The notes beneath the pieces are model-generated. The model was not told the DNA's origin. It did not search any database and worked only from the letters and a program-made list of their open reading frames with translations. A program made the translations under genes and the position numbers. This document shows, one piece after another, positions 35,915 through 47,596 of a DNA stretch of 64,000 nucleotides; within the stretch, counting starts at the first letter, position 1, and each line of letters begins with the position of its first letter. Source of the DNA: Pseudomonadales bacterium (lineage in GTDB: Bacteria; Pseudomonadota; Gammaproteobacteria; Pseudomonadales; UBA7239); assembly GCA_041395785.1 (NCBI GenBank), contig JAWKZZ010000009.1:8292-72291 (forward strand), written 5' to 3'.

Positions 35915-35984
35915 TTTATCGCGGGCCTGAGTTAGTGCGCGAGTGTGCAACTGCTGTGGCAAACAAATAGCAAAAAGGACGGTT

Positions 35985-37522
35985 ATGGCTCGCTCATCCA
36001 AACCCAAAAAGAAGTCAGTGCCGAGCCGTTAGAAAAACAGCTCTGGAAAGCTGCCGACAAACTGCGCAAGAACATTGATGCCGCCGAGTACAAGCATGTG
36101 GTGCTCGGCCTTATCTTCCTCAAATACATTTCCGATGCCTTCGAGGAGCAGCACGCGCTGCTCGCGGCAGGGAAGAGGAATATGCAGGCGCAGACCCGGA
36201 AGACCCAGACGAATACCGCGCGGGCAATGTGTTCTTCGTTCCGGCGGATTCTCGGTGGTCTTACCTCGTTTCGCAGGCTAGGCAGCCGAAGATTGGCACC
36301 GAGGTGGATGCCGCCATGGATGCCATCGAGCGTGACAATCCTCGCTCAAAGGCGTGCTGCCCAAGGTGTATGCCCGCCAGAATCTGGACCCGACCGTGCT
36401 CGGCGAATTGATTGACTTGATCGGCAATATCGCCATGGGCACGGCCAAAGCCCGCAGTGCCGATGTGCTGGGCCATGTGTTCGAGTATTTCCTCGGCGAG
36501 TTCGCATTGGCGGAAGGTAAACAGGGCGGCCAGTTCTATACCCCGCGCTCCATTGTTGAATTGCTGGTGGATATGCTCGCGCCCTACAAAGGCCGCGTGT
36601 TTGATCCCTGCTGCGGTTCCGGCGGTATGTTTGTGCAAAGCGAAAAGTTTGTAGAGGAGCATCAAGGCAAGATAGATGACATCTCCATCTACGGGCAGGA
36701 AAGCAACCAGACCACTTGGCGGCTGGCAAAAATGAACCTCGCCATTCGTGGCATCGACATGCTGCAAGTGAAATGGAACAACGAAGGCTCATTCTTAAAG
36801 ATGCACATACGGATTTAAAAGCCGATTTCATCATCGCCAACCCGCCGTTCAATGTCAGCGACTGGAGTGGCGAGCAACTGCGCGGCGATGCGCGCTGGCA
36901 ATACGGCACACCGCCGCCCGGCAATGCTAACTTCGCGTGGTTACAGCATTTTGTGTTTCATCTTTCACCGCAAGGCAGAGCGGGTGTGGTGCTGGCCAAA
37001 GGTGCGCTCACTCCAAAACCTCCGGCGAAGGCGAGATTCGCAAGGCGATGATCGAGCAAGGCAATTTGATTGATTGCATTGTCAACCTGCCGGCCAAATT
37101 GTTTTTGAACACACAATTCCAGCGGCGTTGTGGTTTTTAAATCGCGCCCGTTCAAACGGTCATAAACACAAGAAAGAGATTTTGTTTATTGATGCGCGCA
37201 ACCTCGGTCATTTAATCAACCGCCGCACCGAAGAATTAAGCCACGATGACATTCGCCAAATTGCCGATACCTACCATGCGTGGTTGGCGGATAAAATTAT
37301 GCCGATGTTCCGGGCTTCTGCGCCTCCGTTCCTATTTCCCGCGTGGCCGAGCTGGATTATGTGCTCACACCGGGGCGTTATGTCGGCTTGCCGGATGAGG
37401 AAGATGATTTCAACTTTGCCGAGCGGTTTGCTGCGCTGAAGGCGGAGTTTGAAGAGCAGTTGAAGGAAGAAGAAAGGCCGAACAAAGCCATTGCTGAGAG
37501 TTTGGCGAGGGTGAAGTTGTGA
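35985..37522 (+). pseudogene. hsdM: Type I restriction-modification methyltransferase subunit HsdM, at least 7 frameshifts
   Basis: Conserved HsdM segments are spread over all three frames: MARSSKPKK | [46 protein letters not shown] | [32 protein letters not shown] | [16 protein letters not shown]...[30 protein letters not shown] | [22 protein letters not shown]...[10 protein letters not shown] | [28 protein letters not shown] | IPAALWFLNR...LFIDARNLG | VPGFCASVPISRVAELDYVLTPGRYVG...KL*. The frame changes lie at about 36006-12, 36168-73, 36341-50, 36795-800, 37009-16, 37113-18 and 37291-300. Each is consistent with a 1-nt deletion. Confidence 0.9.
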
Positions 37523-38711
37523 GTGGGTGGCGTGAAGCTAAACTTGGATGTTTAGGGAAAGTAATCACAGGAAAAACACCATCAAAAGACAATCCTGAAG
37601 ATTGGGGTGATGCAGTATTATTTGTGACCCCATCGGATTACAAAAACTATAGAAAAAAGCAAATTCAAGCTTGCGAATGCTTTCTGTTGCTGGAGCCGAT
37701 AGACAAAAGCAACGATTGCTGCCAGCAATCGGTGTTAGTGACTTGTATTAGTTCTGATATGGGGAAAACTGTTGTTAATGCATTGCCTTGCGTTACAAAT
37801 CAGCAGATAAATGCATTATTCCCAATGAATCTGTAATCGATCCTGATTATCTTTATTACATAACCAAAGACCTATATAGCTTATTAAGCAGTCTTGGAAG
37901 TGATGGCACTGCGGTTCCGATATTAAATAAGTCAGATTTTAAAACATTGATATTGTCATTCCTGGCCTTGAAGAACAAAAATCCATCGCCTCCGTCCTCA
38001 GTAGCCTCGACGAGCAAAATCGACCTCCTGCATCGCCAAAACAAAACCCTCGAAGCCATGGCTGAAGCACTGTTCAGGCAGTGGTTTGTGGAGGGGGTTG
38101 GGGATGCCAAGCCGGTAGTTCTAGGTGATTATGTGGAGGTTTTTAACGGGGTTTCTTATAAGAGCGATGATTTGCAGCCATCAAAAACTGCCATGGTTAC
38201 TCTCAAAAGCTTTGATAGAAACGGCGGATTTAGGCGTGATGGCTTTAAAGAATTTACCGGCAAATACAAGCCGGAACATGTTGTTGAGCAAGGGGATTTG
38301 GTTGTTGCTCACACTGATATAACACAGGATGCTGCAGTAATAGGCAATCCTGTCCTTGTGGTTACTGATCCTGCATATGAGAAGCTGGTTATATCAATGG
38401 ATTTGGTAAAGGTGAAATCACGGTTCGATTGGTTAACAAATGAGTTTCTCTATGTCCTTATGCGAACGAGTGATTTTAAGCAGCACTGCCTTGGTTATTC
38501 TAATGGATCAACCGTTTTGCATTTGAGCAAAAAGGCCATTCCGTCATATGAATTTAATTTTCCATCAATTGAAAAGGTTGGAGAATTTAGCCTTTTGGCA
38601 AAAAACCTATTTTCAAAAAAATTTAAGAATATCGAACAGGTTATATCTCTAGAAAAACTTCGCGACAGCTTGCTGCCGAAGTTGATGAGCGGTGAGGTTA
38701 GAATTTCTTAA
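37519..38711 (+). pseudogene. hsdS: Type I R-M specificity subunit HsdS, multiple frameshifts
   Basis: The GTG overlaps the hsdM TGA (GTGA). TRD1 reads ITGKTPSKDNPEDWG..LFVTPSDY. The conserved TNQQINA | (L)IPNESVIDPDYLYY junction is broken at about 37815-37822. The central conserved helix IVIPGLEEQKSIASVLSSLDE sits in a different frame from the flanking NKSDFKTL and KIDLLHRQNKTLEAMAEALFRQWFV. TRD2 and the C-terminal conserved region (LEKLRDSLLPKLMSGEVRI) are intact. Confidence 0.8.
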
Positions 38712-38722
38712 GGAGATATGCA

Positions 38723-40195
38723 ATGCACATAAAGGAAATGAAGCTGGCTAACTTCAAGGGGTTTTCTGCGGGATTGCCTCCTTTGCAATTCAATATCCCC
38801 AATGGAGAGCTCGGAAGCGGGCTAAATATATTTGTTGGTGAGAACAATACCGGCAAGTCAACATTATTGGAGGCTATAGATTTCCTGAGAAATGGGACAA
38901 AAAAGCCTGTGGAGGTTATCAAGAATAAAAACAATGGCGCAGAGGCCGTAGTAGAGATTCTATTTCAGGGTGATGTCGATTCTGTTATTGATGGGTTCTC
39001 ACAGCCTAATAAGGTGGCCGTTTTTAAAAGATATGTATTCGGCGAAGCAAGGGAAAATATTAGATTTTCGAGAGACACTGCTGATATTAAGGCAATAAAG
39101 CTTTGGTCTAATGCTGATGGTATTTACCAAAATGAAACAGGCATAGATGGGCCTGCAAAAAAGCTATTTGAAGCGAATTTTGTATGGGCAGATACCAACC
39201 CTAATGATGAGGTTAGTTTTGGTGCTACAACTATTTGCGGTAACCTTCTGAAGGAAATTGCCAGTGGATTCACGGAAACAGATGACTACAGAATATTCTC
39301 GGAGAGCTTTCATCAGACATTTAACTCTGAGGATTCGGGGTTGAGGCAGGTTCTTAGAGGTATTGAGGAAAAGACGCAAGAAATATTTCGAGAGCAATTT
39401 GGAGATGCTGGTATAAGCTTTAGATTTGATGAATTAAAGATAGAGTCATTTTTTAAAAACACGGTTATTGATATTGATGATGGTGTCAATACATCTATGG
39501 ATGAAAAAGGAAGTGGCATGCAAAGGAGTGTTGCTTTGGCCTTATTGCAGGTTTATGCAGAGGAGCTAACTAAGCATCCAGATGGTAACGACATAAAAAA
39601 ACCTTTTTTCCTTTTTATAGATGAGCCTGAAATTTGCCTGCATCCCAAAGCGCAAGAAAGGCTTTTGGATGCGATTCTAGAGATATCCAGAACAAAGCAG
39701 GTGTTCTTAACGACACATTCTCCATACTTTATATCTACTAACCACCTTCACAGGGTTGGACTTTTTATATTTAAAAAAGCTAATAATCAGCATTCTATTG
39801 AGGTTATTGGTGGCAATAATCGCCTTCTTCCATGGAGCCCTACATGGGGGGAGATAAATTTCAAGGCCTATCAGCTGCCAACAATTGAATTCCATAACGA
39901 GCTTTATGGCCGCTTGCAAGAGATTAGTACTCAAACACAAATAATCGGCTTCGATGGTTGGCTGGAGGCGCAAGGATTTCCAAAGATCAAGCAATGGATA
40001 AAAGAAGCTAATGGAGTGGCTGGTAATTCAGTCGATGTGACATTGCAGACTTTTATAAGGAATAAGATTCACCATCCTGAAAATTCGACTATGCAGACCC
40101 TTGAATACTCAAGGGACGAGCTTAGTCAGTCAATTCAAGAAATGATTGGTCTTATTGAGGCGAATAACCAAACTGCTGTAGAAGATGGATTATGA
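38723..40195 (+). CDS. ABC/OLD-type (AAA_15/AAA_21-like) ATPase with an uncharacterised C-terminal domain of about 145 aa carrying an RNxxxH (HEPN-like) motif
   Basis: This is an intact 490-aa ORF with SD AGGAG 8 nt upstream. It has Walker A GENNTGKST, signature-like KGSGMQRS, Walker B FFLFIDEPEICLHP and H-loop FLTTHSPYF. The C-terminal domain (about aa 345-490) ends ...VDVTLQTFIRNKIHHPENSTMQT. Its TGA overlaps the ATG of an hsdR 5' remnant (ATGA). Confidence 0.8.
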   Translation: MHIKEMKLANFKGFSAGLPPLQFNIPNGELGSGLNIFVGENNTGKSTLLEAIDFLRNGTKKPVEVIKNKNNGAEAVVEILFQGDVDSVIDGFSQPNKVAVFKRYVFGEARENIRFSRDTADIKAIKLWSNADGIYQNETGIDGPAKKLFEANFVWADTNPNDEVSFGATTICGNLLKEIASGFTETDDYRIFSESFHQTFNSEDSGLRQVLRGIEEKTQEIFREQFGDAGISFRFDELKIESFFKNTVIDIDDGVNTSMDEKGSGMQRSVALALLQVYAEELTKHPDGNDIKKPFFLFIDEPEICLHPKAQERLLDAILEISRTKQVFLTTHSPYFISTNHLHRVGLFIFKKANNQHSIEVIGGNNRLLPWSPTWGEINFKAYQLPTIEFHNELYGRLQEISTQTQIIGFDGWLEAQGFPKIKQWIKEANGVAGNSVDVTLQTFIRNKIHHPENSTMQTLEYSRDELSQSIQEMIGLIEANNQTAVEDGL

Positions 40196-40272
40196 CAAAA
40201 CTCACAGAATCCGCCATCGAAACCTTTGCCATCGAGCAATTCGAGCAGCTTGGCTGTCGGTATATGTATGGC
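40192..40272 (+). pseudogene. Remnant of an hsdR 5' end (second, diverged copy)
   Basis: ATGACAAAACTCACAGAATCCGCCATCGAAACCTTTGCCATCGAGCAATTCGAGCAGCTTGGCTGTCGGTATATGTATGGC encodes MTKLTESAIETFAIEQFEQLGCRYMYG. The real hsdR start at 41163 encodes MIKLTESAIEDFAIEQFEQLGYQYIYG. I counted 66/81 nt identical, with a perfect 23-nt core. Similarity ends at about 40272. Confidence 0.75.
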
Positions 40273-40332
40273 GCAGTTGTCCAGAAATTCCTGATAACTC
40301 GATTTATCTATAGTTCAAGGAGGAACTAAACC

Positions 40333-41166
40333 ATGAGTAACATCAAGCTTTTTCACGATCAGCAAATTCGCAGCCACTGGGATGACGAACAAGCGGAATG
40401 GTTTTTTTCAGTGGTTGACGTGGTGGCAGCGCTTACAGACAGCGCAAACCCCACAGATTATCTGAAGAAGCTGCGCAAAAGGGATGGTCAATTAGGCGGC
40501 TACATAGGGACAAATTGTCCCCAGGTAGCTATGCAGTCCACCACGGGTAAATCAAGAAAGACGCTGGCGGCCACTACTCAACATCTGTTACGGATCATTC
40601 AATCGGTTCCTTCTAAAAAGGCAGAACCTTTTAAGCTGTGGCTGGCTGAAGTGGCTAATCAGCGACTGGATCAACTGCAAGACCCTGAGCTGTCCATAGA
40701 GCAGGCCATGCGGGACTACAAACAACTGGGCTACTCGGATAATTGGATTAACCAGCGTTTGAAAAGTATAGAGATCCGCAAGGAATTAACCGATGAATGG
40801 AAAAAGCATGGTTTGCAGGAAGGCATGGAGTTCGCTTTTTTAACTGATGTGATTTACAAAACCTGGGCGGGTAAAAATGCCAAAGAATATAAGCAGCATA
40901 AAGGGCTGAAAAAGGAAAATCTGCGTGACAACATGACCAATAAGGAACTGGTCATCAATATGTTGGCAGAGCTTTCCACAAAAGAGATTTCGGAAGTCGT
41001 CAATCCTCAATCGTTTACCGAGCATGAAGATGTGGCCAAGCGTGGTGGCGGTGTTGCCAAAGAAGCCAAGCTCAAACTGGAAGCAGAAACAGGCAGAAAG
41101 GTTGTTAGCAGCAAGAATGCCAAACAACTCGGTAAAACACGAAATTTAAGGCCGCCAGACAAATGA
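40333..41166 (+). CDS. Bro-N domain protein, DinD-like (DNA-damage-inducible protein D family)
   Basis: This is an intact 277-aa ORF with a strong SD (AAGGAGG). The N-terminus (IRSHWDDEQAEWFFSVVDVVAALTDSANP.DYLKKLRKRD) looks Bro-N-like. The C-terminal half (KEYKQHKGLKKENLRDNMTNKELVINMLAELSTKEIS) parallels my recollection of E. coli DinD (..HQRKGLKKNQKILDHMGSTELAANLF..). Its TGA overlaps the hsdR ATG (ATGA). Confidence 0.65.
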   Translation: MSNIKLFHDQQIRSHWDDEQAEWFFSVVDVVAALTDSANPTDYLKKLRKRDGQLGGYIGTNCPQVAMQSTTGKSRKTLAATTQHLLRIIQSVPSKKAEPFKLWLAEVANQRLDQLQDPELSIEQAMRDYKQLGYSDNWINQRLKSIEIRKELTDEWKKHGLQEGMEFAFLTDVIYKTWAGKNAKEYKQHKGLKKENLRDNMTNKELVINMLAELSTKEISEVVNPQSFTEHEDVAKRGGGVAKEAKLKLEAETGRKVVSSKNAKQLGKTRNLRPPDK

Positions 41167-44100
41167 TCAAACTCACCGAATCTGCCATTGAAGATTTCGC
41201 CATCGAGCAATTCGAGCAGCTGGGCTATCAATATATTTATGGTCCGAACATTGCGCCTGATTCAGAAACACCCGAACGCGAGCGTTGGGATGAGGTGTTG
41301 CTGAACGGGCGGTTAATGCAGGCGTTGCAGCGCATTAACCCCAAACAGCCGCAAGCCGTGCTGCAAGGTGCGTTAAAGAAATTGAGCGCCTACATTCGCC
41401 AGATTTGCTCGCCAGCAATGAAGCATTTCACCGTTTATTGACGGAAGGTGTAAAAGTCAGCACACAGAAAGAGGGCAATGAGCGCGGCGACATTGTTTGG
41501 TTGGTGGATTTTAATCATCCAGAAAACAATGAATTTTTGGTCATCAATCAATTCACAGTCATCGAAAACAACATCAACAAACGACCAGACTTGGTGCTGT
41601 TTGTGAACGGCATTCCGTTGGTTGTGTTAGAGCTGAAAAATGCCGCTGATGAGAACGCAACCATCACATCGGCTTTCAAGCAGTTGGATACCTACAAAAA
41701 AACTATTAGCAGTTTATTTACTTACAACGCATTGTTAGTGATTTCGGACGGTTTGGAAGCCAAAGCCGGTTCACTGTCTGCTGGGTTGTCGCGTTTCATG
41801 GCGTGGAAAACCGCCGACGGTAAAGCGGAAGCTTCGCACCTTATCAGTCAGTTAGAAACATTGATCAAAGGGATGTTGCGGCCTGCTACCTTGCTGGATC
41901 TGGTGCGACATTTCATTGTGTATGAAAAAACGCGCAAGGAAGATGCTGCTACAGGATTGATCAGCGTCAGTACCGTGAAAAAAGTTGCTGCCTATCACCA
42001 GTATTACGCCGTGAATGCGGCGGTCGAATCGACCTTGCGTGCGGCAGACAAGGTGGTTGCCGAATCACCAGCCAGCTACGGTGTGCCCAGTGTGGAAGAC
42101 CAACCGCGCGGTGATCGCAAGGCGGGGGTGGTGTGGCACACGCAGGGCAGTGGTAAATCGCTCTCCATGGTGTTCTACACCGGAAAAATTGTACTGGCGA
42201 TGGATAATCCCACGGTGTTGGTCATCACGGATCGCAATGATTTGGATGATCAATTATTCGATACATTTGCATCGTGCAAACAATTGCTGCGGCAGGAGCC
42301 AAAGCAGGCGGAGAATCGTCAGCAGTTAAAAGATTTATTGCGTGTCTCTTCCGGTGGTGTGATTTTTGCCACGATCCAGAAGTTTCAGCCTAATGAAGGT
42401 AACGTCTACGAAGAGCTATCCAAGCGCAGCAATATCGTGGTGTTGGCTGATGAAGCGCATCGCACGCAGTATGGCTTTGCAGCCAAAACTGTCGATGAGA
42501 AAAATGATGCTGGTGAAGTCATCGGCAAAAAAACGGTTTATGGTTTTGCGAAATATTTACGCGATGCGTTACCGCAGGCCACTTATCTTGGCTTCACTGG
42601 CACGCCGATTGAAAAAACGGATGTGAACACACCGGCGGTGTTCGGTAACTATGTGGATGTTTATGACATTGCCCAAGCCGTAGAAGACGGTGCCACGGTT
42701 CGTATTTTTTATGAAAGCCGCTTGGCAAAAGTGCAGTTGAATGATGAAGGAAAAAAACTGGTCAAGGAACTGGATGACGAGTTAGAGCAAGATGAATTAA
42801 CGGAAACACAAAAAGCTAAAGCCAAGTGGACGCAACTGGAAGCGTTGATTGGTAGTGAGAAACGCATCGCCAATATCGCTAACGATATCGTCACGCATTT
42901 TGAAACTCGACAGAAAGTATTTGACGGCAAGGGCATGATCGTCAGCATGTCGCGCCGCATTGCTGCTGAGCTGTATGCGGCGATTGTTGCCCTGCGCCCA
43001 GATTGGCATTCTGATGATCCCGCCAAGGGCGTGATTAAAGTAGTGATGACGGCCAGCAGCAGTGATGGCCCACAAATGGCCAAGCACCACACAACCAAGC
43101 AGCAGCGGCGCGCATTGGCCGAGCGCATGAAAGACCCGGATGACGAACTAAAGCTAGTGATCGTGCGCGACATGTGGCTCACCGGCTTTGATGCGCCTTC
43201 CATGCACACGCTGTATATCGACAAGCCCATGAAGGGCCACAACCTGATGCAGGCCATTGCGCGTGTTAACCGCGTGTATGGTGACAAGCCCGGCGGCAAT
43301 GTGGTGGATTACCTCGGCATCGCTTCGGATTTGAAGGAAGCTCTCAGTTTTTATTCCGATGCGGGAGGCAAGGGCGATCCAACGCTGGCGCAGGAACAGG
43401 CTGTGGCATTGATGCTGGAAAAGCTCGAAGTGGTCAGCCAGATGTTCTCGGGTACGGAAGGGCATGGTTTCCCCTATGAAAATTACTTTACTGCCGATAC
43501 CGCACAAAAACTCTCGCTGATTCTCGCGGCCGAGGAACACATTCTCGGTTTGGAGAATGGCAAGAAGCGTTACATCAACGAAGTCACTGCCTTGTCGCAG
43601 GCGTTTGCTATCGCCATCCCGCATGAACAAGCCATGGATGTGATGGACGAAGTGGCATTTTTTCAAGCTGTAAAAGCGCGGCTGGCGAAATTTGATAGCA
43701 CGGGCGGCGGGCGCACAAACGAAGAAATCGAAACCACCATTCGACAGGTGATCGACAAGGCGTTGGTGTCCGATCAGGTGATCGATGTTTTCGATGCAGC
43801 CGGTATCAAGAAGCCAGATATTTCGATTCTATCGGATGAATTCATGGAAGAACTGCGCAACCATCAGCACAAAAATATCGCGCTGGAAGTATTGAAAAAA
43901 ATCTTGAATGACGAAATCAAAACACGAGCACGCACCAATCTGGTCAAAAGTAAGACGCTGATGGAAATGCTGGAAAACAGCATCAAGAAATACCACAACA
44001 AAATTATCACGGCGGCAGAAGTGATCGACGAGTTGATCAAACTCAGTAAGGAAATTGTCACTTCAGATGCAGAAGCCAAACACATGGGCTTGTCGGATTA

Positions 44101-44386
44101 TGAGTATGCTTTTTACACCGCAGTCGCTAACAACGACAGTGCCAGAGAGTTGATGCAGCAGGATGTGTTGCGTGTATTGGCCGTGGAGTTGTTTCGCGCC
44201 ATCAAAGATAACGCTTCTATCGACTGGACGATGAAAGAAAGTGTACGCGCCAAGTTGAAAGTCATCGTCAAACGATTGCTGCGCAAATATGGCTATCCAC
44301 CGGATATGCAGGCCTTGGCAACGGAAACCGTGTTGCAACAAGCAGAAATGATTGCCGATTCCCTCGTAGCATCGGCTTCGATATAA
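41163..44386 (+). pseudogene. hsdR: Type I restriction enzyme endonuclease subunit HsdR, one 5'-proximal frameshift
   Basis: The main ORF 41405..44386 has the nuclease region ([19 protein letters not shown]) and SF2 helicase motifs ([47 protein letters not shown]). The N-terminal 72 aa lie in another frame (41163..). The frames join if one A is added in TTAAAGAAATT (about 41374-41380), giving ...[26 protein letters not shown]. Confidence 0.9.
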
Positions 44387-44402: not shown

Positions 44403-46649
44403 ATGAAACCACTACATTTCATCGCCACTTGCGCGCGCGCCCAAGAGCCATTACTGGCAGCAGAACTAGAAGCCTTGTTTGCGCAGGATGTGGTGGCTGG
44501 CGATCGCATCGTCAGTTTTTCTGCCAGCCCAGAGGTGGTGTATCGCGTGTTGCTTGGCACGCGCATTGCCAACCGCGTGTTGTGGCCTCTGTGCACGGTG
44601 CCGGCCAGTGATGGCGATGAAATGTATCAAGCGCTGCGTGAATACGATTGGGCGCTGTTGCTACAACCGTCTAACACTTTTTGTGTCGATTTCATTGGCG
44701 AATCGGACAGTATTCGCAATAGCATGTTCGGCGCGATGCGTGTGAAAGACGCGATTGTCGATAGTGTTCGTGCAGGCGATTTGCGCCCGAGTGTTGTGAA
44801 AGATTCGCCCGATATTCGTTTCAATGCGGTATTGCTGTCCAACGAAAAGCAAACCGATCGCGTGCAAGTGGCGATCGATTTAGGTAATGGTAGTTTGCAT
44901 AAACGCGGCTATCGCCAACAAGCAGGCGAAGCGCCGTTAAAAGAAACCGTGGCTGCAGGTATGTTACTGCGCGCGAATTGGCCAGCCATCGCAGCAGCAG
45001 GCGGCGCATTATTTGATCCAATGTGTGGCAGTGGCACTTTGCTGATTGAAGCGGCGTTGATGGCGGCAAACATTGCCCCCGGTGTTTATCGTGAGCAGTG
45101 GGGCGTGCGCTATTGTCCGTGGCACGATGAGGTGTTGTGGAAAAAAATACTGACCGATGCCAAAAGCCGACTATTGAATGTGGGCGCAATCAGCATGCCT
45201 AAAATTGCCGGCAGCGATGCGTTGTTGCCAGTGATTAAAAAAGCGCGCGAAAACATTGATCGCGCCGGTTTGTCGGAATGCATTAGTGTTGATGCGGAGC
45301 ATTTAGCCGACAGCATGCCGCCACGCGCTAAAACGGGCTTGCTGATTTGTAATCCACCTTACGGTGAACGCTTGGGCAATATGGAAGATTTGCCGCAACT
45401 GTATGCCGCTTTAGGTGAAAAAATCAGCGTGCTACACGGCTGGCAAGCAGCGGTGTTGACCAGTGAAAAAGAATTGGCGCAGGCCATTGGTTTGCGCAGC
45501 CACCGTTCGTATCGTTTCGATAACGGCGCCATTGCTTGCAGGTTGTATTTGTTTGAGTTGAATGAGCGCAATCGCTTTAAAGCGTTTGACGCATCAGTTT
45601 CTCGCGCCAGCCAAGACGCGGTGAGTGAAATAGAACAGCTCTCGGATGCAGCGCGGATGTTGTGCAATCGTCTGCAAAAAAATGCACAGAAATTGCAGGG
45701 CTGGTTAAAGCAGTCCGGTGTGACTTGTTATCGCCTTTACGATGCGGATATGCCGGAATACGCGTTTGCGATTGATATTTACACGCATGCCGAGAATGGT
45801 GAGCGCCATGTGCATTTGCAGGAATATACACCGCCAAAAACAGTCGACGAAGCGGCTGCAGCGCGCAGGCGTGAAGAAACGCGCTTGGCGGTGTCGGCGG
45901 CATTGCAAATTCCCTTGTCGCGCGTATACGGCAAAAACCGTGAGCGGCAGCGCGGCGAGAAAAAGCAGTACAACAAGCAGGAAGCGGTGGTGGATACGCG
46001 TTTCCCTGTGCAAGAAAGCGGACACCTGTTTCAAGTGAACATGCAGAGTTATCTCGACACGGGATTATTTCTCGATACGCGTCCCGTGCGGCAATTGCTG
46101 GCAGAGAAAGCCCGAGGCAAAAGTTTTTTGAACTTGTTTTCGTATACGGCGAGTGCCACGGTGTATGCCGCAAAAGCGGGTGCGCGCAGTTCGCTGTCGA
46201 TAGATATGTCAGCTACCTATACCGATTGGTCGCGCCACAATTTTGCCAATAACGGTATCAATACACGCAAGCATCAGTTGTTGACGGCCGATTGTTTACA
46301 GTGGCTGGAAGAAGTCGATGAGCAGTTTGATCTGATTTATCTGGATCCGCCGACTTTTTCTAACTCCAAGCGCATGCGCAGCACGCTGGATGTGCAGCGC
46401 GATCAAGTGCAGTTGATTGGCTATGCCTTGGATTTGTTATCGGATAACGGCGAGCTGATTTTTGTCACCAACCACCAGCGCTTTAAGTTGGAGAATCGGT
46501 GTTCATTAAAAGCCACGGCTGGAAGCCAGAAAATATTACGGCGCAAACACTGGATGTGGATTTTCAGCGCAGCAAAAAATTCACCAGTGCTGGTTATTCC
46601 GCAGCGCTTGAATGATGTCCGTCGAGTAGGTGAAGCGCGTCGTGAATAA
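44403..46649 (+). CDS. rlmL: Bifunctional 23S rRNA methyltransferase RlmKL (RlmL), with a frameshifted 3' end
   Basis: It has THUMP and N-terminal MTase motifs (DPMCGSGTLLIEAA, ICNPPYGERLG) and a C-terminal MTase (FDLIYLDPPTFSNSK). The expected tail SVFIKSHGWKPENITAQTLDVDFQRSKK | IHQCWLFRSA* lies in the other two frames. The shifts are at about 46491-94 and in the A6 run 46574-79. The repaired stop would be 46609-46611. Confidence 0.85.
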   Translation: MKPLHFIATCARAQEPLLAAELEALFAQDVVAGDRIVSFSASPEVVYRVLLGTRIANRVLWPLCTVPASDGDEMYQALREYDWALLLQPSNTFCVDFIGESDSIRNSMFGAMRVKDAIVDSVRAGDLRPSVVKDSPDIRFNAVLLSNEKQTDRVQVAIDLGNGSLHKRGYRQQAGEAPLKETVAAGMLLRANWPAIAAAGGALFDPMCGSGTLLIEAALMAANIAPGVYREQWGVRYCPWHDEVLWKKILTDAKSRLLNVGAISMPKIAGSDALLPVIKKARENIDRAGLSECISVDAEHLADSMPPRAKTGLLICNPPYGERLGNMEDLPQLYAALGEKISVLHGWQAAVLTSEKELAQAIGLRSHRSYRFDNGAIACRLYLFELNERNRFKAFDASVSRASQDAVSEIEQLSDAARMLCNRLQKNAQKLQGWLKQSGVTCYRLYDADMPEYAFAIDIYTHAENGERHVHLQEYTPPKTVDEAAAARRREETRLAVSAALQIPLSRVYGKNRERQRGEKKQYNKQEAVVDTRFPVQESGHLFQVNMQSYLDTGLFLDTRPVRQLLAEKARGKSFLNLFSYTASATVYAAKAGARSSLSIDMSATYTDWSRHNFANNGINTRKHQLLTADCLQWLEEVDEQFDLIYLDPPTFSNSKRMRSTLDVQRDQVQLIGYALDLLSDNGELIFVTNHQRFKLENRCSLKATAGSQKILRRKHWMWIFSAAKNSPVLVIPQRLNDVRRVGEARRE

Positions 46650-47596
46650 CGGTGACCGTGGCGCCTTTTTATGTGCGCGTTTTCACTGATATGACGGCGA
46701 AACTGGCGCGAGCCAGAAACATTGTGCCACAAGCCTAGAAGATGGCGCGTCAACATGCTGAGTGACACACCCAGCGCGTGTTGTTCTGCACAGTAAGCGG
46801 CATACTGCTGGGTAATCTGAATTCTATTGGTAGTTTCGTGCGGATCATCGAACAGCACCGCATCCGCTTCGGATAAGAAAAAAGTGTTGTGCCATGCTGC
46901 GCGTCCCATCATCACACCATCGACATGTTGTAGATGATGCTGAGCTTCTGCCAGTGTGGCGATGCCACCGTTAATAACAATATTTAATTGGGGGCGCAGC
47001 GCTTTTAAGCGATAAACCCAATCGTATTTTAGCGGTGGAATTTTGCGGTTTTCTTTCGGGCTCAAGCCCCGCAGCCACGCATTGCGGGCGTGCACAATCA
47101 CGGTATTGCACGGGCTGTCTGTTGTTACATCAATGAATTGCAAAAACTCATCAAAATTATCTTGTTGATCGATGCCGGTTCGGCATTTCAGTGTCACAGG
47201 CAATGCGCTGCCTTCTGCCATCGCGCGCAGGCTGTCGCGCACCACAGTGGGCGTGCTCATCAAACAGGCGCCAAAAGCGCCGCTCTGTACGCGGTCGCTG
47301 GGGCAGCCACAGTTGAGGTTCAATTCATCGTATTGATATTGCGCAGCAATGGCGCTGCTGTCGCGCAATTGCGCTGGATCTGCGCCGCCGAGCTGTAGGG
47401 CAACAGGATGCTCAGTGTTGTTAAACGCTAATAAATGATCGGTTTTTCCATGCAGAATGGCATGGGTGGTAATCATTTCTGTGTATAGCAGTGTGTGTTT
47501 GGTGAGTAAGCGCGCCAGATAACGAAAGTGTTTGTCTGTCACATCGATCATGGGAGCGACAGACAATTTTCCCATCAATAAATTATTTGTGGGCAT
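46421..47596 (-). CDS. dusA: tRNA-dihydrouridine synthase A (DusA), with an artificially extended 3' end caused by a frameshift
   Basis: The Dus TIM-barrel shows SVAPMIDVTDKHFRYLARL, LNCGCPS and VTLKCRTGID. After ...RQFRRHISENAHIK the expected tail GATVTVIHDALHLLDGHHSSAAE* is in another frame. The shift is in the T5 run at 46666-46670 on the plus strand. The repaired stop would be 46594-46596, giving about 334 aa. Confidence 0.85.
   Translation of the reverse strand: MPTNNLLMGKLSVAPMIDVTDKHFRYLARLLTKHTLLYTEMITTHAILHGKTDHLLAFNNTEHPVALQLGGADPAQLRDSSAIAAQYQYDELNLNCGCPSDRVQSGAFGACLMSTPTVVRDSLRAMAEGSALPVTLKCRTGIDQQDNFDEFLQFIDVTTDSPCNTVIVHARNAWLRGLSPKENRKIPPLKYDWVYRLKALRPQLNIVINGGIATLAEAQHHLQHVDGVMMGRAAWHNTFFLSEADAVLFDDPHETTNRIQITQQYAAYCAEQHALGVSLSMLTRHLLGLWHNVSGSRQFRRHISENAHIKRRHGHRYSRRASPTRRTSFKRCGITSTGEFFAALKIHIQCLRRNIFWLPAVAFNEHRFSNLKRWWLVTKISSPLSDNKSKA

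Follow-up and report, generated by a model that had tools for sequence, protein, structure and literature searches.

Gene X and its ATPase part

The window analysed here, a stretch of 64,000 nucleotides (nt) of a Pseudomonadales bacterium (GenBank assembly GCA_041395785.1, contig JAWKZZ010000009.1), contains a decayed type I restriction-modification (R-M) operon with an uninterrupted open reading frame (ORF) for a protein of 490 amino acids (aa), here called gene X, between hsdS and hsdR (Table 1). The protein combines an ATPase of the OLD type with a C-terminal domain (C-domain) of a new type, and it has more than 1385 homologues, which carry only general names in public databases ('AAA family ATPase', 'ATP-binding protein' or 'ATP-dependent nuclease'). 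In our reading, to which we assign a probability of roughly 0.55, gene X encodes an autonomous defence protein of the abortive-infection type that unites an ATPase and a nuclease in a single polypeptide.

A first-pass annotation of the window had placed the ORF 11 nt after hsdS, where the ORF listing and the sequence confirm it: the start is found 11 nt 3' of the stop of the hsdS-like ORF at 37788-38711, with an AGGAG Shine-Dalgarno sequence 8 nt 5' of it. At the other end the TGA of gene X (40193-40195) shares bases with an ATG at 40192. The annotation had taken this for the junction with hsdR, and the overlap with an hsdR-type ATG is indeed present, but the ATG opens a short 5' stub of hsdR only and the real hsdR start is located at 41163. 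Gene X and hsdS are both AT-rich (GC contents of 40% and 41%, respectively, as compared to 50% for the window), which is consistent with horizontally exchanged cassettes. Compared with its nearest relative, gene X has been strongly constrained by purifying selection (ratio of non-synonymous to synonymous substitution rates, dN/dS, of 0.06 against the 88%-identical homologue). A scan for promoters and terminators at gene X was uninformative, with counts at or below shuffled expectation.

Judged by its sequence, the N-terminal part (aa 1-345) is an ABC ATPase of the OLD/AAA_15 type with every catalytic motif. The Walker A, KGSGMQR, Walker B and TTHSP motifs listed in the first-pass annotation were all found, and the class of the ATPase is backed by Pfam (AAA_15, E 2e-34; AAA_21, E 6e-21) and by PADLOC, for which the best model was 'Old' (E 2e-47), followed by AriA, GajA, PtuA and HEC-01A. 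The match to 'Old' was confined to the ATPase part and involved positions 3-348 of the 578-position model; P2 old was matched by tblastn at 3e-14, and a PDB sequence search with the protein returned ATPases only. The residues K45, G263, G265, D300, E301 and H332 were conserved in 68 out of 68 relatives, and for this reason the ATPase should be active. A Foldseek search with the full-length AlphaFold model (mean predicted local distance difference test score, pLDDT, of 82) yielded PtuA, GajA, the retron Eco8 effector, Thermus OLD (6p74, E 5e-12), Rad50 and SMC heads, at E values of 1e-13 to 1e-10. The absence of a Toprim domain, remarked upon before, was borne out by Pfam scans of both the full protein and the isolated C-domain, and gene X is thus not an OLD nuclease. 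An NCBIfam scan of the full protein gave nothing above threshold. When the full protein and the C-domain by itself were run against Pfam, NCBIfam and PADLOC, the ATPase was the sole part recognised, and no Pfam, NCBIfam or PADLOC model covered the protein over its full length.

Table 1. Features of the gene X locus (positions in the window) and sister ATPases (positions in the respective loci)
Feature	Positions	Strand	Basis or remark
Gene X, OLD-type ABC ATPase with C-domain of new type, 490 aa	38723..40195	+	uninterrupted ORF
ABC ATPase domain, aa 1-345	38723..39757	+	Pfam, PADLOC, Foldseek, conserved catalytic residues
Walker A, G39ENNTGKST47	38837-38863	+	ATPase motif
Signature, K262GSGMQR268	39506-39526	+	ATPase motif
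Walker B, F295FLFIDEPE303	39605-39631	+	ATPase motif
H-loop, T330THSP334	39710-39724	+	ATPase motif
C-domain, ~125 aa, alpha+beta (aa 366-490), candidate effector	39818..40192	+	AlphaFold2; unmatched in all libraries searched
Motif W371-S-P-T-W-G-E377	39833..39853	+	near-invariant in the family
Motif H391-N-E393-L-Y-G396, within a helix	39893..39910	+	conserved; E393-x3-R397 fits HEPN Ex3[KR] here
Motif R446-N-K-I-H-H451-P-E-N454 (Rx4H, N after R)	40058..40084	+	end of helix 441-450, start of loop to last helix
hsdM pseudogene, at least 5 frame changes	35945..37522	+	fragmented ORFs; tblastn with intact L052 HsdM: frames 1, 3, 2, 1, 3, 1
hsdS, split in two frames (1 frameshift)	37519..38711 (37519-37836, 37788-38711)	+	ORFs, tblastn
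hsdR 5' stub, ~27 codons	40192..40276	+	alignment to real hsdR start; translation MTKLTESAIETFAIEQFEQLG...
Bro-N gene, intact, 277 aa, PADLOC candidate PDC-S13	40333..41166	+	Bro-N E 1.6e-8; PDC-S13 E 9e-126
hsdR pseudogene, one frameshift near 41340-41440	41163..44386	+	ORFs 41163-41441, 41405-44386
Sister ATPases with other C-terminus	L029 8001-9743; L031 4810-6456; L032 177-1919; L034 3010-4641

The C-terminal domain as a candidate effector

The strongest argument for an effector role of the C-domain is an effector swap. Four proteins (L029, L031, L032 and L034) were found to be 56-62% identical to the gene X protein over aa 1-348 and to have a different C-terminus, with an EGxxD motif in each. 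A scan with OLD-like TOPRIM (PF20469), covering L029, L031 and L034, scored in L029 and L031 and gave no Toprim match in L034. On this sequence comparison, which displays the architecture and the swap directly, one lineage of putative sensor ATPases has, in one and the same place, either a Toprim or this new domain. Since the sister proteins carry their Toprim at the equivalent position, the new C-domain is probably the effector rather than a regulatory appendage.

AlphaFold2 modelled the C-domain confidently (pLDDT 89), with three helices (375-383, 388-402 and 407-416), a beta-hairpin (423-439), a further helix (441-450) and a long last one (464-488). Its three motifs are all essentially invariant in the family, although they differ in how strictly they are kept. 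The WSPxWGE residues were conserved in 58-65 of 68 relatives and the motif is gone in a divergent class of 650 aa, in which the C-domain is borne by a very different ATPase. H391 is invariant, divergent architectures included; at position 393 Glu was found in 63 of the 68 relatives and Asp in another 3, and the position four residues further on is Arg in the window protein and Tyr, His, Phe, Lys or Trp in other members. Most strictly kept is the third motif, [IV]R446[NH]x[IV]HH451[PG][ED]N, which all 64 full-length members of the family share, across many phyla. In an alignment of 47 sequences that includes the divergent classes, R446, H451 and N454 are invariant and H450 may be replaced by Asp; a copy on the Lactobacillus helveticus plasmid pLH1, only 29% identical, has retained RNEIDHPET and lacks E393. 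The first-pass annotation had noted R446NKIHH451 at nt 40058-40075, where it was found, and had singled out R446 and H451 as residues whose invariance should be examined in homologues; this invariance is directly seen in the alignments. RNKIHH is the sole R[NHD]xxxH in the protein, and the chance of encountering one such pattern in 490 aa is a few per cent by our own estimate, i.e. not improbable. We take the motif as real because of its invariance in the 64 full-length members and in the divergent architectures.

With a profile of the C-domain, 933 representative clusters (50% identity) were found at E<=1e-3. In every scanned cluster the domain was located C-terminal to an AAA_15/21 ATPase; the shorter matches proved to be truncated ATPases, and no HEPN_Toprim_N fusions were found among them.

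The annotation had read RNKIHH as fitting the signature of HEPN RNases. HEPN domains are described as having an Rx4-6H motif with Asn, Asp or His after the Arg, an acidic residue in helix 2, often within Ex3[KR], and, frequently, an insert that separates helix 2 from helix 3 (Anantharaman et al. 2013, PMC3710099). The order of elements in the C-domain model agrees with this description: E393-x3-R397 of the window protein, in helix 388-402, would correspond to the acidic residue, an additional helix and the hairpin would represent the insert, R446, followed by a polar residue, is located near the end of helix 441-450, and H451 opens the loop that leads into the final helix, as in HEPN. This agreement in topology is a reading of the secondary-structure string and not a fold comparison. 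The motif and the order of the secondary-structure elements fit the HEPN suggestion of the annotation, and membership was not confirmed by any profile or fold search: we consider HEPN-like chemistry of the C-domain plausible on the basis of sequence and model, and HEPN membership unproven.

Several results weigh against a nuclease encoded by a single gene. A Pfam scan of the isolated C-domain of gene X gave nothing at E<=10, and at the same cut-off 25 C-domains of the family showed no recurrent HEPN or other nuclease family; HEPN_RiboL-PSP was touched by 1 of the 25 (E 0.16) and DUF2027 was matched by 5 (best E 0.004). The PDB search with the C-domain profile returned only DOM34, at E 0.37, which we consider noise, and neither this search nor Pfam revealed profile-level similarity to an established HEPN family. 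Foldseek, run with the C-domain model against PDB and BFVD, found no fold match (best E 0.2, template modelling (TM) score below 0.25). In addition, the modelled helices fall short of the length seen in classical HEPN domains. A comparison by hhalign with the nuclease domain of RloC, for which an alignment was built starting from an RloC-like gene that adjoins the X homologue in locus L055, yielded a probability of 0.3%, and with a profile of 121 X sequences a score of 17.7 (P 0.028, probability 1.8%), a score that was reached by 4 out of 150 column shuffles. Genes for RhuM, Fic, Bro-N and Abi_C are frequent in the neighbourhood and make a multi-gene system possible, and in the literature we found no experimental study of any member of the family. 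Weak Foldseek matches of the C-domain to ribosomal protein S7 and prefoldin (TM score below 0.25) were dropped as candidate fold relatives.

The weak hhalign alignment puts I-H-H451-P-E-N of gene X onto the invariant Y-S-H-E-E-N of RloC. This signal is marginal and we regard it as a lead only, without claiming homology. A test for an AAA_13 (Rad50/SbcC-like) domain in the N-terminal part returned the P-loop only, at E 0.57. With no AAA_13 ATPase and no demonstrable homology to the anticodon nuclease (ACNase) domain, gene X is neither a PrrC nor an RloC, and the suggestion of the annotation that it may represent a distinct family is upheld.

The failure of Pfam and Foldseek to return a HEPN match also bears on another kind of nuclease. 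The C-domain could be a metal-dependent DNase or another non-HEPN nuclease, ATP-dependent and acting on DNA like Old and GajA, with H391, H450, H451, E453 and N454 as ligands. The invariant cluster of His, His, Glu and Asn could hold a metal, a beta-hairpin directly precedes the motif helix, and there is the database name 'ATP-dependent nuclease'. However, divergent members may have Asp in place of H450 while R446 and H451 are strictly kept, as expected of the Rx4H pattern of HEPN; the sequence of the hairpin, in contrast to that of His-Me finger nucleases, is not conserved, for which reason we rejected a His-Me/HNH reading of the hairpin and helix; and the generic name stems from the OLD-type ATPase and not from any test. 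We consider such a nuclease unlikely.

Alternatively, the C-domain could be a non-catalytic sensor, adaptor or partner-binding domain, the toxicity being provided by a neighbour (Bro-N/PDC-S13, RhuM or Fic) or by the ATPase through its effect on a partner protein (compare AriA-AriB and PtuA-PtuB). That no nuclease fold was detected by Pfam, by the PDB profile search or by Foldseek would fit such a role, as would the frequent presence of RhuM, Fic or Bro-N immediately downstream (in L083, L082, L004 and the window) and the reported co-occurrence of PrrC-like genes with RhuM and Doc (Anantharaman et al. 2013, PMC3710099). Nevertheless, close relatives have a Toprim nuclease in cis where gene X has this domain, no conserved partner accompanies the solitary copies, and one would expect invariant Arg, His, Glu and Asn in a catalytic site more than in a sensor, which tends to vary. 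We consider a non-catalytic role unlikely.

Genomic context of the family and decay of the operon

A connection to type I R-M was evident in the 74 loci of the family that we compared (78 loci fetched minus the four Toprim-type sisters). Type I hsd genes were found within 6 kb in 24 of these loci, and nearby in 16 out of the 45 loci that have at least 3 kb on both sides. We estimate that a random gene would be found so close in well under 1% of cases and therefore consider the association real. The usual arrangement, on one strand, is hsdM-hsdS-X-(0-4 genes)-hsdR, with hsdS immediately 5' of X in 15 loci (gaps of -10 to +69 nt, and one outlier of 521 nt); in 4 loci X is found between hsdM and hsdS. 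In all three closest relatives (88%, 79% and 68% identical; loci L081, L082 and L083) the gene directly follows hsdS. The first-pass annotation had proposed to test for an enrichment between hsdS and hsdR, and homologues are indeed strongly enriched in type I R-M operons, typically right behind hsdS. Linkage of the prrC type, between hsdS and hsdR, is present in the window and not obligatory for the family.

The genes downstream of X frequently include Fic (in L082), RhuM (in L004) and PDC-S13 (in the window). In the 68%-identical relative L083 the operon reads hsdM-hsdS-Abi_C-X-RhuM/Fic-hsdR, with an overlap between the stop of X and the RhuM/Fic start. The same locus (L083 4496-7615, 10899-12371) has a HEPN_LA2681 gene, ardA and a second Fic gene just downstream, and forms a dense islet of defence and anti-defence genes.

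About two thirds of the loci of the family have no type I genes nearby. In Actinobacillus (L010 8001-9461) and Haemophilus (L013 8001-9440) the gene is part of a type I-C CRISPR operon (cas3-X-cas5d-csd1-...), and other neighbours are AlwI-type, C5 and N4/N6 methylases, HNH_5, Mrr-nSTAND3, a DUF4011 helicase, a UvrD-PD-(D/E)XK protein and an RloC-like gene. The UvrD-helicase/PD-(D/E)XK protein, of 1116 aa, is encoded 39 nt 3' of the X homologue in a Saccharimonadales locus (L036 9491-12841) and recalls Gabija and class 2 OLD. A solitary X homologue was found on a Klebsiella IncF plasmid, between two copies of ISNCY, and another on L. helveticus pLH1; in a Neisseria species the gene is located between matE and murB. 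In E. coli an X homologue directly follows an integrase gene in a small capsid-encoding island, present in 10 out of 5426 complete genomes. This island lies next to rcnR and encodes major capsid and tape measure proteins (L079/L080, 7529-12169); a satellite or a defective prophage with the X homologue as cargo is a possible interpretation. The X gene therefore also travels alone.

In the window, hsdM and hsdS are broken, as the annotation had stated, and hsdR is frameshifted too, which it had missed (tblastn shows frame 2 and then frame 1, 78% identical to L052 HsdR). The ATG at 40192 opens an ORF of 45 codons, of which the first ~27 show ~83% DNA identity to the start of hsdR (40192-40276 versus 41163-41247). 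The stop of the PDC-S13 gene overlaps the ATG of the real hsdR (ATGA), like that of gene X overlaps the ATG of the stub. In L026/L027 a fragment of 99 aa from the N-terminus of HsdR is encoded 14 nt after the X homologue. The presence of hsdR 5' stubs beside gene X and in L026/L027 suggests that the embedded cassettes are swapped by recombination at the conserved 5' end of hsdR, with a piece of that gene carried along.

The remainder of the window is well preserved (92% coding) and the neighbouring housekeeping genes are uninterrupted; the inactivation appears to have been selective for the R-M system. Further downstream, an rlmL-like ORF (44403-46649, forward strand) and a dusA-like ORF (46421-47596, reverse strand), both seemingly longer than usual at the overlapping ends, overlap by ~230 nt, which may reflect a frameshift or an artefact of the start codon.

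The annotation had drawn attention to gene X being intact amid broken neighbours. This is indeed the case, but as evidence of current selection it is weak, as the local rate of ~0.45-1.2 frameshifts per kb would leave an ORF of 1.47 kb unbroken by chance with a probability of ~0.2-0.5 (our own estimate). The window copy, as distinct from the family, might be a remnant without function in a decaying R-M islet, unbroken only by chance. The breakage of hsdM (at least 5 frameshifts), hsdS (1) and hsdR (1) and the promoter scan, with nothing above chance, fit such a remnant; on the other hand, gene X has retained all invariant residues and has a dN/dS of 0.06 against its nearest relative, the adjacent PDC-S13 gene is likewise unbroken, and the window is otherwise well preserved. 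We hold the remnant explanation to be fairly unlikely.

The state of the operon is also informative on the role that the annotation had proposed for gene X, that of a true PrrC-type guard, kept latent in the HsdMSR complex and firing when an anti-restriction protein of a phage disables R-M. Such a guard would fit the prrC-like position, with tight or overlapping junctions in the window and in many relatives, as well as the strong enrichment in type I operons, and it has a described precedent (PMC3710099; bioRxiv 10.1101/2024.01.29.577857). Against it stand the two thirds of loci without type I genes (the IS-flanked plasmid, the integrase islands, CRISPR I-C and housekeeping surroundings) and the lack of a sequence relationship to PrrC/RloC, tested with AAA_13 for the ATPase and, for the nuclease, with the RloC domain only. 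Moreover, with gene X intact and all three hsd genes frameshifted, the protein can evidently be carried without a functional HsdMSR. The solitary copies in the family and the frameshifted hsd genes together make an obligatory guard in the style of PrrC unlikely, and the idea of latency via the R-M complex is weakened.

Relation to known systems and proposed mode of action

Gene X resembles several known systems and coincides with none of those that we could compare in sequence. It has the ATPase type of class 1 OLD proteins (P2 Old) and, like these, would be a sensor and effector in a single polypeptide and mobile defence cargo; however, the C-terminal Toprim that defines the class is missing and an unrelated alpha+beta domain with an Rx4H motif takes its place. 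The anticodon nuclease PrrC of the E. coli prr locus likewise has an N-terminal ABC ATPase and a small C-domain with residues of the Arg/His type, and its gene is also flanked by hsdS and hsdR in a type I operon. In contrast to gene X, PrrC (~396 aa) has an ATPase of the AAA_13/Rad50-like clade, its C-domain, gauged through its relative RloC, belongs to an ACNase type without significant profile similarity to that of X (hhalign at most 2%), and the gene X family is often independent of R-M. RloC, a wobble-nucleotide-excising tRNase, combines an ABC ATPase with a C-terminal RNase, is usually unlinked to R-M and is self-regulated. Gene X lacks both its coiled-coil/zinc-hook insert and its AAA_13 ATPase, and whereas the catalytic Arg of RloC comes from an upstream RRFxE helix, that of gene X would stand 5 residues before the His.

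The architecture of gene X (an ABC ATPase with a C-terminal Rx4-6H domain) is also that of the ABC-HEPN families APECO1_4465 and ERFG_01251, which we compared by their description only. The contexts reported for these families match as well (R-M operons that include RhuM or Fic/Doc, islands resembling prophages, and occasional insertion into CRISPR-cas loci). The HEPN domain of ERFG_01251 is, however, described as 'classical' and as also being fused to HEPN/Toprim-NTD1, neither of which holds for the X domain. The Neisseria homologue of gene X was not found in a CRISPR locus and the names of the E. coli cluster are generic. By this analogy the gene X family may coincide with the APECO1_4465 or the ERFG_01251 group.

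PARIS (AriAB), Septu (PtuAB), Gabija (GajAB) and HEC-01 to HEC-04 have related ATPases, are nested in defence operons and follow the same logic of a sensor ATPase and a nuclease. PARIS, Septu and HEC-01 to HEC-03 have their effector (Toprim, HNH, NERD or PIN) on a second polypeptide, and GajA and HEC-04 have a fused Toprim, whereas the domain fused in gene X is of a different, unrecognised type.

For the preferred reading of gene X as an autonomous defence protein we infer nuclease activity, an RNA substrate, activation by dimerisation and a trigger along the following lines. By analogy with P2 Old, GajA, AriA and PtuA, the OLD-type ABC ATPase would act as a nucleotide-driven sensor or switch that responds to a phage-derived cue, e.g. 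an anti-restriction protein or aberrant DNA, and its silence would require no R-M complex. The C-domain, in the Toprim position of the close relatives, would be the toxic effector, in which R446 and H451 together with N447, E453, N454, H391 and E393 most likely form a metal-independent RNase site with HEPN-like chemistry. Through dimerisation of its ATPase heads, driven by ATP, the protein may join two C-domains into a composite site, as HEPN RNases require, and fusions of an ABC ATPase and a HEPN domain are on record (PrrC, RloC, APECO1_4465 and ERFG_01251; PMC3710099). A tRNA or another RNA of translation is the likely target; tRNA is a reasonable guess because effectors of OLD-type systems have been reported to cleave it, as in the case of P2 Old (bioRxiv 10.64898/2026.07.10.737580) and AriB of PARIS (PMC12409363). 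As to its ecology, gene X would be a mobile cassette that lodges preferentially after hsdS and provides a second line behind restriction.

Taking these elements further, we tentatively propose, as a possibility, that the C-domain is an unrecognised RNase fold or an extremely reduced HEPN domain that was swapped for Toprim, that its R446/H451 site, built by a dimer, cleaves tRNA, and that the family (at least 933 clusters) would constitute a very widespread single-gene abortive-infection system that habitually serves as a reserve for type I R-M, and at times for type I-C CRISPR, against phages with anti-restriction proteins.

Modules consisting of an ABC ATPase and a nuclease (Old, Gabija, PARIS, Septu, PrrC and RloC) are among the commonest anti-phage devices. 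The gene X family would add to these a known sensor chassis with a candidate effector that no domain library recognises and that is abundant across phyla; if the Arg/His site is that of an RNase, it would represent a new effector class for OLD-type systems. The preference for the position between hsdS and hsdR and the hsdR 5' stubs make the idea of a backup of restriction testable beyond PrrC. Finally, gene X and its sisters form a natural effector-swap series, in which ATPases that are ~60% identical bear either Toprim or the new domain, and such a pair is suited to working out how OLD-type ATPases activate their effectors.

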